Of a DNA stretch of 64,000 nt, positions 7,304 to 8,010 are shown one piece after another. Source of the stretch: a virus (Duplodnaviria; Heunggongvirae; Uroviricota; Caudoviricetes); IMG/VR virus record IMGVR_UViG_3300028591_000113, positions 46,087-110,086 of that record. The stretch is one strand, 5' to 3'. Each line of letters starts with the position of its first letter. Position 1 is the stretch's first letter. A program made the translations under genes and the position numbers. The notes below the pieces were generated by a model. The model searched no databases. It saw nothing but the letters and a program-made list of their open reading frames with translations, and had not been told where the DNA came from.

Positions 7304-7332
7304 TTGACAAAACCCAAAAGTTCATCTATAAT
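7304..7332 (+). promoter_or_regulatory. consensus sigma70 promoter TTGACA-17nt-TATAAT
   Basis: Perfect -35 (7304-7309) and -10 (7327-7332) hexamers with 17-nt spacer. Confidence 0.7.
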
Positions 7333-7338
7333 AATTAT

Positions 7339-7800
7339 GTAAAGATAATAAAAGTATCTTTATGGGTAAGATGCAATGCCTGTCCCCAAGATGAAAAGGC
7401 GCGCCTGTTGAGTATAGACGTCGAGCTTAGCAGTATAACAGACAAACCCATGAGAGTGGGGCAATTGAGCCAGATTGACATGGTTACTCTCTCCTTGATG
7501 CCGTTCAGCAAAGCAGTAGGACAATGACTGTGGGTGGTGCGGTATCCAAGTTGCTGGGGAATGGGCAATGTCGCAAGCCAATGTTTCCCACTTACCTTCA
7601 ACTAATGCGACTAACAAGATATTGGCAGAGTGTGAAGTGGATTATGGTTTATAATTAGTTTAATCCTCACTTATGTGAAAAAACAAGGAACCTTGGGGTG
7701 ATGTGGTTAATCCTACTCTGTTTCAAGAGTATAACTGAATTGGAGCCACGCAAGGATGTGGCGGCTTTAGCGGATTGAAGCGAAGAACCCGCCTATTATT
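7339..7800 (+). ncRNA. about 460-nt GC-rich ORF-free transcribed leader or ncRNA between promoter and small ORF
   Basis: Stops in all three frames; GC well above coding neighbours; downstream small ORF 7824-7958 and terminator 7985-8010. Confidence 0.4.
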
Positions 7801-7823
7801 AAGTATTGTAAGGAGTTAAAATC

Positions 7824-7958
7824 ATGAACGTTTGGTACACTGAAATTAATTTAGGAACAAACCCAGCCGAAGGTCATTATGATGTCATCGGTGATTTTAA
7901 CAATGCCTTGTTTATTGAACAACTTAATTCGTATCAACCAGTTAATTGAACTAAGTAG
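7824..7958 (+). CDS. small protein (44 aa with TGA=Trp; 41 aa if TGA stops)
   Basis: Strong AAGGAG RBS 7 nt upstream of ATG. Confidence 0.4.
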
Positions 7959-7984
7959 ATAACCCATTAGGTAGAAAACAATAA

Positions 7985-8010
7985 GCAAGGTGAAAAACCT
8001 TGCTTTTTTA
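7985..8010 (+). terminator. Rho-independent terminator (GCAAGGT-gaaaa-ACCTTGC + TTTTTT)
   Basis: Perfect 7-bp stem + T6. Confidence 0.7.

Follow-up and report, generated by a model that had tools for sequence, protein, structure and literature searches.

A short conserved reading frame and interchangeable RNA modules in the leader of a phage tRNA array: a candidate leader-peptide-type attenuator

The window analyzed here, the whole stretch of 64,000 nucleotides of phage DNA, contains on its plus strand an interval that would constitute one early transcription unit heading an array of tRNA genes; all features described below lie on this strand. The unit begins with a consensus sigma-70 promoter (7304-7332; TTGACA at 7304-7309, a 17-nt spacer and TATAAT at 7327-7332). 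It is the sole 12/12 match within positions 6400-9000, and the same promoter is kept upstream of the homologous units in every relative. Transcription probably starts near 7339. The leader (~7339-7823, ~485 nt) is without a credible ORF, as its only frames are of 26-44 aa and none has an RBS, and its G+C content is 45-53% compared with 27-36% in the flanks. It is followed by a small ORF of 44 codons plus TAG (7824-7961), of which the RBS, AAGGAG at 7810-7815, lies 8 nt before the ATG at 7824, and by an intrinsic terminator (7983-8010). A perfect TTGACA-17-TATAAT promoter, a GC-rich ORF-free leader, a strong-RBS mini-ORF and a terminator had been claimed in a preliminary description of this DNA, and all four are borne out here. 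Judging from sample names only, the uncultivated phage carrying the unit is probably from the ruminant gut.

The genes at 8024-8928, identified by Pfam and tRNA calls, are reached only through the terminator. The first is a Cys-rich ORF of 61 aa (8024-8209) related to the ferredoxin-thioredoxin-reductase beta chain (PF02943, E = 1.5e-5). Next is an atypical tRNA-Tyr(GUA) at 8211-8293 (23.9 bits), which is called Tyr in relatives, followed by tRNA-Asn, His, Glu, Ile, and Asp; relatives keep the order Tyr-Asn-His-Glu-Ile-Asp. We detected no consensus promoter-like site between the terminator (8011) and position 8947. In six relatives (L090, L094, L105, L111, L131, and L151) tRNA-Tyr starts a few nucleotides past the U-run of the terminator, which leaves no room for an intervening promoter.

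Relatives of the unit were gathered via the upstream protein, a DNA pattern, and the small protein. Among GenBank phages there was no match to the leader of the window or of L147 by blastn, or to the peptide by tblastn. IMG/VR contributed only one related phage (L001, L002), and metagenomes contributed four new true relatives (L101, L105, L110, and L111); a fifth metagenome locus, L102, is the L001 contig. The other 16-22-mer matches in IMG/VR were rejected as chance matches to unrelated, mostly G+C-rich coding DNA, as were the pattern matches in genome collections and most of those in metagenomes. A unit of this kind was not found in the literature searched.

The preliminary description had proposed a covariance search. 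With Rfam 15, no leader match was obtained for positions 7200-8300 at the gathering score or at E <= 10, and the leaders of five relatives gave no match either. At E <= 10 the search of 7200-8300 returned only a subthreshold tRNA (8213-8290), besides two minus-strand matches due to chance. By comparison of relatives, the leader is not a single riboregulator but a mosaic, with at least 10 modules that fold independently. Three module families, I, B, and K, were formally tested; all three covary, and two of them form pseudoknots.

At the very start of the RNA, ahead of the modules, an MFE fold predicts a 5'-terminal hairpin P0 (UAAAGAUAAUAAAAGUAUCUUUA, 7340-7363), which was found in every examined relative in which this stretch is intact, module-free ones included; in L105 the stretch is interrupted. 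P0 may act as a 5' stabilizer. The pseudoknotted module I (7371-7493, ~123 nt) comprises the helices GCCU/AGGC, CUGUUGAG/CUUAGCAG, and CCC/GGG, plus the crossing helix GAGAGU/ACUCUC. In alignment A4 (n = 8 sequences) 100% of 168 cells are paired, compared with 35-48% when the strands are slid, and seven pairs have changed on both sides. An extension, module W (7494-7569), is restricted to the window, L110, and L105 and is missing from short forms of module I. Its predicted MFE fold has the stem GAUGCCG/CGGUAUC and is closed by pairing with the upstream segment 7379-7388, and it lacks covariation because the three copies are near-identical.

Module B (7570-7630) has a stem formed by GUCGCA (7570-7575) and UGCGAC (7606-7611) around a 30-nt loop. 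In alignment A5 (13 sequences) this stem is 100% paired, with a closing pair that is GC in nine sequences, AU in two, and CG and UA in one each. A possible loop-tail helix, GCCAAU (7577-7582) with AUUGGC (7621-7626), is 70% paired. The next segment (7632-7714) is a variant form of a K-type module that shares 34 nt with L101 at 94%. It contains GAUUA (7640-7644), a loop, and UAAUC (7661-7665), then a CAAGG/CCUUG hairpin, and a clear second stem is absent. In nine other leaders the loop of the K module pairs with the tail after CCUGACGCACGACACAGC to give a pseudoknot. When own tails were compared with swapped tails in a register-restricted test, only 3 of 5000 permutations were as good; a cruder earlier test (longest helix, G-U allowed) gave no signal. 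The last modules are three hairpins (7715-7792). H3 occupies 7715-7730. H4 is formed by GCCAC (7745-7749), loop GCAAGGAU, and GUGGC (7758-7762), its closing pair being GC in two cases and AU in seven. H5 is formed by GCGG (7770-7773) and CCGC (7789-7792) with loop UGAAGCGAAGA; its stem occurs as GCGG/CCGC, CCGG/CCGG, GCAG/CUGC, GUAG/CUAC, CAGG/CCUG, and UCGG/CCGA.

Folding energy did not set the leader apart. Neither the 495-nt leader (z = -0.41) nor the 209-nt block (z = -0.22) folded better than shuffled sequence, and the evidence for structure in the leader is therefore covariation, not energy. The leader proposed at the outset is a genuinely structured RNA, conserved piece by piece, but it is not one riboregulator: its modules are shuffled among relatives. 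We also considered whether the leader could be coding sequence under another code, and rejected this: its indels are not in threes, and it has conserved nucleotide blocks with compensatory changes.

A module map of the relatives shows modules present, absent, or reordered, with zero to approximately nine per leader. L148 and L149 have none, yet retain the promoter, 5' hairpin, RBS, ORF, and terminator. L131 and L157 are without B, H4, and H5. L146 and L147 encode an identical small protein behind leaders that differ by whole modules. In the window, L105, and L146, module I precedes B, whereas in L153 and L157 it follows K. An AU-rich spacer always stands between the last module and the invariant RBS.

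These observations bear directly on the suggestion that the whole 460-nt leader is a single riboregulator, with aptamer and expression platform, controlling translation of the small ORF or termination. In its favor are the G+C-rich, ORF-free leader with its covarying helices and the position of H5, ~20 nt from the RBS. However, Rfam gave no match up to E <= 10, none of the modules is shared by every leader, and their order is permuted, so that no aptamer recurs at a fixed position in the homologous leaders. The RBS context, (U/A)AAGGAGUUAAAAUCAUG, is identical whatever stands upstream, and the conservation of the SD-AUG spacer is explained by pairing with the ORF, as described below. We therefore regard a single riboregulator as very improbable, and the earlier idea of one controlling the small protein does not agree with modules that vary in number, identity, and order in front of a constant RBS and ORF. 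The switch-like RNA, for which the support is best inside the ORF, lies instead in the RBS, the ORF interior, and the terminator, and most plausibly it governs whether transcription continues into the tRNA array, rather than just the small protein.

Presence and absence of modules could also be the mark of a self-splicing intron or other mobile element, in this case the ~200-nt block at 7366-7569 inserted into a shorter leader. This block is absent from L088, L094, L095, and L001, with a clean junction at UAUCUUUAUG|GUCGCAAGCC, and a long stem is predicted to close it. Its conserved core, module I, however recurs in other leaders at different positions and shortened, the window has only one copy of the block, and a UTR does not need splicing. 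No group I intron or other ribozyme model matched at E <= 10, and neither a group I core nor a junction with a U-G pair in P1 or a terminal G was found. An insertion of this type is extremely unlikely. Models of group I intron, tmRNA, T-box, hammerhead, and pistol RNAs were all without a match, and their motifs do not fit.

A broader alternative is that the modules are stand-alone noncoding RNA domains, either decoys or sponges for host defense or RNA-processing proteins or new small ribozymes, which would be highly expressed, and possibly excised, from a safe early 5' UTR site, with the ORF and its leaky terminator forming just an ordinary small gene. Independent folding, pseudoknots, strong covariation, and a strong early-type promoter agree with this, and so does the rapid gain, loss, and shuffling of modules even beside identical small proteins, a pattern expected of accessory, arms-race elements. 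The phage also invests in large RNAs, as a ROOL RNA is present in the same window (23707-24300). Against it, there is no indication of processing sites, and no other copy of the leader modules was found within the window, so the modules are tied to one UTR. Moreover, it leaves the complementarity and covariation between RBS, ORF, and terminator described below unexplained. We consider stand-alone modules unlikely as an account of the locus, albeit compatible with an attenuator and not exclusive of it. In the attenuator reading favored below, the upstream modules are accessory cargo, their function being putative.

The small ORF, with the product MNVWYTEINLGTNPAEGHYDVIGDFNNALFIEQLNSYQPVNWTK, represents a family of 33 protein clusters. 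The frame reaches TGA at 7947-7949 after 41 aa and continues through to TAG at 7959-7961 to give 44 aa. In the column of this TGA, 10 of 14 units have TGG and 4 have TGA; the in-frame TGA is read as Trp. The phage as a whole reads TGA as sense: chains of TGA-separated ORFs occur after 24.8 kb, a match to the UvrD N-terminal domain crosses two TGAs, and a tRNA(UCA) is located at 42843-42939. Among relatives the peptide is maintained, with synonymous changes in its codons and indels in multiples of three. Whether relatives keep the small ORF had been named as a point to check; they do so in all 33 clusters, and the option of a noncoding RNA with an incidental small ORF can be set aside. The peptide matched no family in Pfam or PHROGs, and its AlphaFold2 model has a pLDDT of 55. 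Its amino acid conservation is far above that of classical leader peptides and therefore suggests that it acts also, or only, as a protein.

The RNA of this ORF has alternative pairing partners on either side. Region 1 (7810-7825) consists of the RBS and S1 (GUUAAAAUC plus AU, 7815-7825), the latter covering the SD-AUG spacer. S1 pairs with 7891-7901 in codons 24-26, also in MFE folds, and this helix is 96% paired in alignment A7, with one pair that is CG in 12 sequences, UA in two, and UG in one. Region 2 (7891-7917), recognized by its pairing and invariant codon choice, comprises S2 (GUGAUUUUAAC, 7891-7901, codons G-D-F-N) and S3 (GCCUUGUUUAUUG, 7905-7917, codons A-L-F-I-E). An ORF-internal hairpin (7866-7892; GCCGA 7866-7870 with UCGGU 7888-7892), predicted by RNAalifold and MFE, encloses the codons E-G-H-Y-D-V-I and stacks on S2; three of its RNAalifold pairs (69-73 with 91-95) have changed on both sides in some sequences. 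Regions 3 and 4 (7979-8011), identified by terminator scan and covariation, are made up of S4 (CAAUAAGCAAGGU, 7979-7991), which overlaps the 5' arm of the terminator, and the terminator itself (AAGCAAGG-UGAAAAA-CCUUGCUU, 7983-8005, then a U-run), with a helix that is 99% paired. S3 can pair with S4 at 7979-7991 or, alternatively, with the SD; in the former case, codons 28-32 and the terminator 5' arm form an antiterminator.

S1:S2 and S3:S4 each reach 96% pairing, compared with 31-48% in slid controls; for S3:S4 the values are 96% over 10 pairs and 89% over a 13-pair extension, compared with 34-51% in slid controls. The aligned sequences are related to each other, and the shuffle control overstates significance. 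The 11th pair of S3:S4 is CG in six sequences, UA in six, and UG in two. In the divergent L001 both helices are kept with different letters (z = -5.3), and the antiterminator is a 14-bp version. Most S1-S4 positions are invariant, and support for the helices therefore comes from the few covarying pairs, L001, and the complementarity itself. Codon choice is likewise invariant in S2 and S3 among units with the consensus residue (GAT 15/15, TTT 16/16, AAC 16/16, and TTG 16/16), whereas the codons for Leu and Asn outside S2 and S3 are TTA (15/15) and AAT (14/14), respectively. The extension of the 1:2 pairing by SD:S3 is predicted, its columns being invariant. Invariance also applies to the H4 loop GCAAGG, a third copy of the region 3 word. 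It could form a kissing interaction with CCUUG of the terminator or S3, where all positions are likewise invariant, and its conservation hints at a possible link to the switch.

The segment from the ORF to the terminator, which had not been singled out before, is thermodynamically exceptional (z = -3.6 and -3.4). The MFE structure of the window unit combines S1:S2 with the 13-bp S3:S4 helix, and the S3:S4 antiterminator is the MFE structure in 12 of 13 units. RNAalifold gives the other state, in which SD and S1 pair with S2 and S3 and the terminator is formed. The two states are 0.9-8.8 kcal/mol apart in 12/13 units, and the SD is paired in both.

We put at roughly one in two the probability that these elements constitute a leader-peptide-type attenuator that gates the tRNA array and carries accessory RNA modules in its 5' UTR. 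A host-type consensus promoter would yield an RNA with a protective hairpin at its 5' end, followed by ~450 nt of 5' UTR with independently folding modules, some of them pseudoknotted, that have been gained, lost, and reshuffled in relatives. The mRNA of the 44-codon ORF would be the regulatory device. In it, region 1 (SD and spacer, 7810-7825) would pair with region 2 (7891-7917) within the ORF, the 3' half of region 2 (CCUUGUUUAUUG) would have an alternative partner in region 3 (7979-7991), which makes up the terminator 5' arm, and region 3 would otherwise pair with region 4 (7998-8005) to give the terminator. In naked RNA, or with a ribosome stalled before region 2, the 2:3 antiterminator would form and RNA polymerase would continue into the Cys-rich ORF and the genes for tRNA-Tyr, Asn, His, Glu, Ile, and Asp. 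A ribosome that has moved past region 2, between regions 2 and 3, would permit the terminator, and the transcript would end at ~8010.

Three observations are those expected of an attenuator: a short ORF with its own RBS (AAGGAG, ATG at 7824) upstream of the genes, an intrinsic terminator between this ORF and the tRNA genes with no promoter-like site between, and a 2:3 pairing (S3:S4) that excludes 3:4 and is evolutionarily maintained. As the RNA of the ORF can pair with the RBS or with a terminator arm, transcription of the tRNA genes probably depends on whether the ORF is translated. The anatomy of the unit, its conservation, and its alternative, covarying pairings upstream of tRNA genes that have no detectable consensus promoter are direct observations, from which we infer the direction of the switch and its dependence on the ribosome. 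A distance of 17-29 nt separates the stop codon from region 3, which a ribosome terminating there would therefore leave uncovered; the ribosome would have to function as a steric wedge. S3:S4 might also serve mRNA stability, or the terminator might simply be leaky.

In a purely post-transcriptional alternative, the hairpin, pseudoknotted modules, and ORF pairings would block 5' exonucleases or endonucleases and limit translation of the small protein to nascent RNA, with a constitutive terminator and tRNAs made by fixed read-through. The 5'-terminal hairpin in nearly all relatives and the pairing of the SD in both low-energy states favor this alternative, and pseudoknot arrays in viral UTRs, such as the flavivirus xrRNAs, are known to block exonucleases. 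However, module-free relatives retain everything else, a stabilizer does not need a match between region 2 and the terminator arm with a covarying pair across the ORF and 3' UTR, and the two states are near-isoenergetic in 12/13 units. We judge this alternative to be improbable.

Phage tRNA arrays are now regarded as tools against codon mismatch and against tRNA-cutting host nucleases. In addition to gating the array, the attenuator could be a sensor of tRNA supply with a role in counter-defense, and its hypervariable modules a second RNA accessory layer of decoys or ribozymes; this extended reading is tentative, and we hold it to be doubtful. Ribosomes would stall in the conserved stretch E-H-Y-D-V-I-G-D-F-N when Tyr, Asn, His, and Asp tRNAs (GUN anticodon), along with those for Glu and Ile, are scarce or cleaved by an anticodon nuclease of the host. 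If a ribosome halted immediately ahead of region 2, CCUUGUUU would be free to capture the terminator arm, and read-through would supply phage tRNA-Tyr, Asn, His, Glu, Ile, and Asp, exactly those needed. Each of Y, N, H, E, I, and D is represented among the 12 residues before S3, matching the six tRNAs of the first unit. A 12-aa window with all six has a frequency of 0.3% in the proteins of this phage and is found in 16 of 24 family members, in a test that was post hoc and is confounded with RNA constraints. The small ORF has no tandem run of one regulatory codon.

In conclusion, we report here a phage transcription unit in which tRNA genes may be controlled by the translation of a short conserved ORF. 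To our knowledge, no case of expression control of a phage tRNA array has been described, and, if true, this would be the first case, as far as we know, of tRNA genes under translation-coupled attenuation; the virus could then switch on replacement tRNAs only when translation falters. The leader also yields approximately ten new families of structured RNA modules, none matching Rfam, three with tested covariation and two pseudoknotted, that behave like shuffled cassettes. We know of no description of such an organization in bacterial or phage UTRs.

Several known systems resemble parts of this unit. The 3' UTRs of flaviviruses consist of tandem xrRNA, dumbbell, and stem-loop elements, with the block of Xrn1 as a proven function. 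Like them, the leader is a viral UTR of autonomous pseudoknotted modules that differ in number between relatives, but flaviviruses are eukaryotic RNA viruses with modules in the 3' UTR, and there is no relation in sequence or fold. In phage T4, the stable RNAs C and D exist within the tRNA cluster as separate, processed species. They are likewise structured non-tRNA RNAs cotranscribed with phage tRNAs, whereas the modules here precede the small ORF. ROOL and GOLLD are large ornate phage RNAs that are usually located beside tRNA genes (RF03087; PMC12286853). The leader shares with them a large structured RNA beside phage tRNA arrays; unlike their one fixed architecture, its order and content are variable, and it has no Rfam match.

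Comparable regulatory logic is found in the T-box riboswitches of Firmicutes, leader RNAs that tie tRNA status to a choice between antiterminator and terminator. T-box RNA binds tRNA directly and does not need translation, whereas the antiterminator here is made of ORF codons. We found no match to RF00230 at E <= 10 and neither a Stem I with specifier nor a T-box bulge by the terminator. The closest parallel is with the attenuators of amino acid operons (trpL, hisL, pheL, leuL, and thrL), which are ribosome-mediated according to the Yanofsky model. As in trpL-type attenuators, a short translated ORF with its own RBS is followed by an intrinsic terminator, four segments have mutually exclusive pairings, 2:3, 3:4, and a putatively protective 1:2, and the genes follow without a detectable promoter. 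The unit differs in that the RBS itself serves as region 1, with region 2 inside the ORF, in the position of the stop codon in the antiterminator loop, in the lack of a tandem codon run in a peptide of 43-44 aa conserved as a protein, and in the regulated genes, which are phage tRNAs and not biosynthetic genes. For Sinorhizobium trpL, the attenuator RNA rnTrpL and the peptide peTrpL are both described to act in trans (PMC7298713, 10.1101/606483). The Sinorhizobium peptide differs from the product of the small ORF in that it has 14 aa, the signal sensed in that system is Trp, and the two have no sequence relation. As described there, Sinorhizobium trpL provides a precedent for an attenuator ORF with a functional peptide and for a terminated RNA that acts alone (PMC7298713).

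The promoter, the ORF-poor and G+C-rich leader, the mini-ORF with a strong ribosome-binding site and the terminator of the preliminary description are all present in the sequence where it had placed them. A TTGACA (7304-7309, + strand) is followed after a 17-nt gap by TATAAT (7327-7332), and this pair is the sole 12/12 promoter match within 6400-9000; transcription likely starts at about 7339. From 7339 to 7823 there is nothing but ORFs of 26-44 aa, each without a ribosome-binding site, and the G+C content of the leader is 45-53% compared to 27-36% on both flanks. The ribosome-binding site AAGGAG (7810-7815, +) lies 5' of the ATG at 7824, whose frame contains TGA at 7947 and TAG at 7959, and a terminator consisting of a 9-bp hairpin with a U-run is located at 7983-8011 (+). 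Five more + strand matches to T[TG]GACA-N16-18-TATA[AC]T (3581, 14880, 40397, 41547 and 41669) suggest that the phage makes repeated use of consensus promoters of the host type.

About 20 distinct homologous units, chiefly from metagenome assemblies, were reached by three routes: through the protein encoded directly upstream of the unit, by a DNA pattern scan over metagenomes, and with the small protein as the query. GenBank phages contained no sequence similar to the unit, and IMG/VR held only one related phage, represented by loci L001 and L002. Several of the samples carry the labels STEW19, XIEF21 or TONG22, which probably denote ruminant-gut studies. In the most distant relatives, L133 (3340-3700) and L134 (2575-2935), the upstream gene and the module-bearing promoter are separated by an inserted extra gene of 78 aa, which has a consensus promoter and a 5' hairpin of its own.

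Sequence comparison of the relatives indicates that the small ORF is a gene. It is conserved in homologues, a point on which the preliminary description had called for a check: a profile of seven homologues recovered 33 protein clusters of 32-60 aa (consensus ME.VWYTINLGTNPA.EHYVIGDFN.ALFTVTE..YEPVKWTE), indels comprise whole codons, and conserved residues vary in their synonymous codons (TAC/TAT, ACT/ACC/ACA, CCA/CCT/CCG, GTT/GTC/GTG). Pfam and PHROG contain no family for the peptide, and its predicted fold is not confident (pLDDT 55). Members called as 41-42 aa by gene callers end just before a conserved Trp, and the corresponding column of the aligned units has TGG in 10 and TGA in 4. Based on this column and on TGA being sense in the window, the ORF therefore has 44 codons (7824-7958) and ends at the TAG, which settles the earlier alternative of a frame running three codons beyond the TGA.

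The window evidently reads TGA as sense. Beyond about 24.8 kb (24800-57000), long frames are chains of pieces split by TGA only; a UvrD-helicase domain match crosses two in-frame TGAs, the UvrD-like helicase at 55600-56952 spans three, and a tRNA with anticodon UCA is encoded at 42843-42939, with a long variable arm and an SeC call by ARAGORN. Before 24 kb the window contains no TGA-terminated ORFs of at least 100 aa. The class II form of tRNA(UCA) is unexpected if TGA encodes Trp. The window is part of a large phage; it contains 33 tRNA genes and also encodes a topoisomerase II subunit, a DNA ligase, a ROOL RNA and a c-di-GMP-I riboswitch. The tRNA array has its main block end at 20948, and about 2.8 kb 3' of that block is the full-length ROOL RNA (23707-24300, +; RF03087, 196 bits, E = 1e-42). 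The c-di-GMP-I aptamer (28772-28847, +; 58.8 bits versus a gathering score of 35) is in a region of genes with in-frame TGA, directly upstream of ORF 28819-29445.

Codon choice in the middle of the small ORF is frozen by position. Asp-Phe-Asn is GAT TTT AAC in all units with those residues (15-16/16) and Leu-Phe is TTG TTT; the other conserved Leu and Asn codons are always TTA and AAT, respectively. The frozen words have complements elsewhere in the unit, and regulatory RNA appears to be located inside the ORF. Segment S1, composed of the spacer between Shine-Dalgarno sequence and AUG plus two start-codon bases (GUUAAAAUC+AU, 7815-7825), pairs with S2 (GUGAUUUUAAC, 7891-7901), and S3 (GCCUUGUUUAUUG, 7905-7917) pairs with S4 (CAAUAAGCAAGGU, 7979-7991), which includes the terminator 5' arm. 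On 15 aligned units, 96% of S1:S2 and S3:S4 cells are paired, compared to 31-48% for slid partners, and the terminator is 99% paired across aligned units. Near-invariance of the words leaves little covariation in S1-S4, but some is present. An S1:S2 C-G pair is replaced by U-A in two units, in L111 at the price of an Asp to Asn change. The 11th S3:S4 pair, between position 2 of an Ile/Thr codon and a base of the 3' UTR, occurs as C-G (six units), U-A (six) and U-G (two). The peptide of L001 is quite different; S1:S2 is kept as AAAGGUU/AACCUUU, S3:S4 has 14 bp including its own stop codon, and the fold z is -5.3. For the window, z of the ORF-terminator RNA is -3.6, and the minimum-energy fold has S1:S2 and S3:S4 even with the terminator 3' arm present. 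RNAalifold favours an alternative in which the SD AAGG and S1 pair with S2 and the CCUU of S3, with the terminator formed. In constrained folding, 12 of 13 units had the antiterminated state as their minimum, with the terminated state only 0.9-8.8 kcal/mol higher. As modelled, these alternative pairings correspond to the 1:2 / 2:3 / 3:4 scheme by which leader-peptide attenuators work. Many relatives (L095, L105, L111, L150, L151, L153 and L157) share a conserved 3'-UTR word, AAAUCUUAAUCCG(A/U)GUAAGCAAGG, just 5' of the terminator; the window differs at this position (CCCAUUAGGUAGAAAACAAUAAGCAAGG).

Downstream of the terminator, the window has no promoter-like sites up to 8947. A 61-aa Cys-rich ORF (8024-8209, +; CPC...CMC...CHC) matches PF02943, ferredoxin-thioredoxin-reductase beta-like, and phrog_38239, with relatives in 186 IMG/VR stretches, mostly from unrelated phages; at this position the ORF is optional and is missing from six relatives. 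An atypical tRNA-Tyr(GUA) follows at 8211-8293 (+; Rfam 23.9 bits, gathering score 29; missed by ARAGORN). In this tRNA the variable arm is long, the first pair is apparently C1-G72, UGCAACU takes the place of UUCGAAU in the T-loop, and CCA is encoded. Its counterpart in relatives is called Tyr, with canonical T-loops in L131 and L151. After it, tRNA-Asn, His, Glu, Ile and Asp are present before 8947, and the order Tyr-Asn-His-Glu-Ile-Asp-Gly-Met-Thr is kept in all six relatives without the Cys-rich ORF. In these six relatives tRNA-Tyr starts a few nt 3' of the U-run, and the tRNAs can therefore be transcribed only through the terminator. Between tRNA-Asn and tRNA-His, a gap of 230 nt (8374-8604, +) contains a basic 33-aa ORF with a ribosome-binding site (8396-8497), not conserved in L094, and G+C-rich sequence in which CGAGGUUCGAGUCCUCG (8513-8529) forms a perfect hairpin resembling a T-arm. 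This may be what remains of a tRNA, or an unusual tRNA that escaped detection.

Whereas the parts, their alternative pairings and the order of the genes are observed, the following operation of the switch is inferred. S3 would capture S4 on the emerging RNA before the terminator 3' arm is made, and ribosome-free RNA would read through. A ribosome that has passed S2 and S3 and occupies the 61-nt S3-S4 interval while the polymerase makes the terminator would block S3:S4; the terminator would then form, ending the transcript at about 8010. Stalling of the ribosome before S2 would again give read-through. The 12 residues 5' of S3 (AEGHYDVIGDFN) include all six amino acids of the first unit's six tRNAs, a property of 0.3% of this phage's 12-residue protein windows and of 16 of 24 family members. 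This count is post hoc and confounded with RNA constraints, and we therefore put forward sensing of tRNA supply as no more than an unlikely possibility.

The leader has a mosaic build. Nearly every unit has the promoter, a 5'-terminal hairpin, the small ORF with its ribosome-binding site and spacer (GGAGUUAAAAUCAUG), and the terminator; the stretch from the 5' hairpin to the ribosome-binding site varies. It is empty in L148 and L149 (entire leader 57 nt) and comprises about 160 nt in L090, 450 nt in the window and 620 nt in L147 (leader 668 nt); the longest leader is that of L105 (689 nt). At least 10 recurrent blocks are definable (I, W, B, K, V, X, Y, T/T2, H3, H4 and H5), and their order is variable, with I 5' of B in the window, L105 and L146, and 3' of K in L153 and L157. 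B, H4 and H5 are all missing from L131 and L157, and L146 and L147 encode an identical small protein with whole blocks different. There are no second copies of blocks elsewhere in the window.

For module I (7371-7493), 21 pairs were proposed, and standard pairs fill all 168 cells in 8 sequences (slid partners, 35-48%), with double-sided changes at 7 pairs including both pseudoknot helices (CCY/RGG and RAGAGY/RCUCUY). The closing stem of module B (7570-7630) is paired in all sequences, with GC, AU, CG or UA as the outer pair; a loop-tail helix is possible. In nine leaders, the hairpin loop of module K pairs with a tail 3' of the conserved CCUGACGCACGACACAGC (for example, UCCAUUU/AAAUGGA, CCAAUU/AAUUGG and AUAGG/CCUAU), and own tails beat swapped tails (3/5000 permutations equally good). 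The window copy of K is a variant form that lacks a clear second stem. Covariation is seen in H4 and H5 as well. Folding energies of the leader (z = -0.41) and of 7364-7572 (z = -0.22) show no excess over shuffled sequence. Rfam 15 gave only a sub-threshold downstream tRNA on 7200-8300 down to E = 10, and no match on the leaders of five relatives. The covarying pairs thus uphold the structured leader of the preliminary description, as several autonomous domains instead of a single fold. The modules are dispensable to the unit, as L148 and L149 show, turn over quickly and leave the invariant ribosome-binding context untouched. This would fit accessory RNA domains, for example decoys or ribozymes, that use a highly expressed early UTR; a role as modulators of the switch fits less well. 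The loop of H4, GCAAGG, is a repeat of the S4 word and could be a competitor for CCUUG.

We found no description of the unit in Rfam, annotated phages or the searched literature, and membership tests rejected T-box, riboswitch, group I intron and ROOL/GOLLD RNA as its identity. In its proposed mode of action, the unit is similar to a trp-type attenuator. By contrast, in the phage unit the ribosome-binding site serves as region 1 and coding sequence as region 2, the peptide shows conservation at the protein level, and the presumed targets are phage tRNA genes. The stranger part of the unit is its cassette-like array of new RNA modules.
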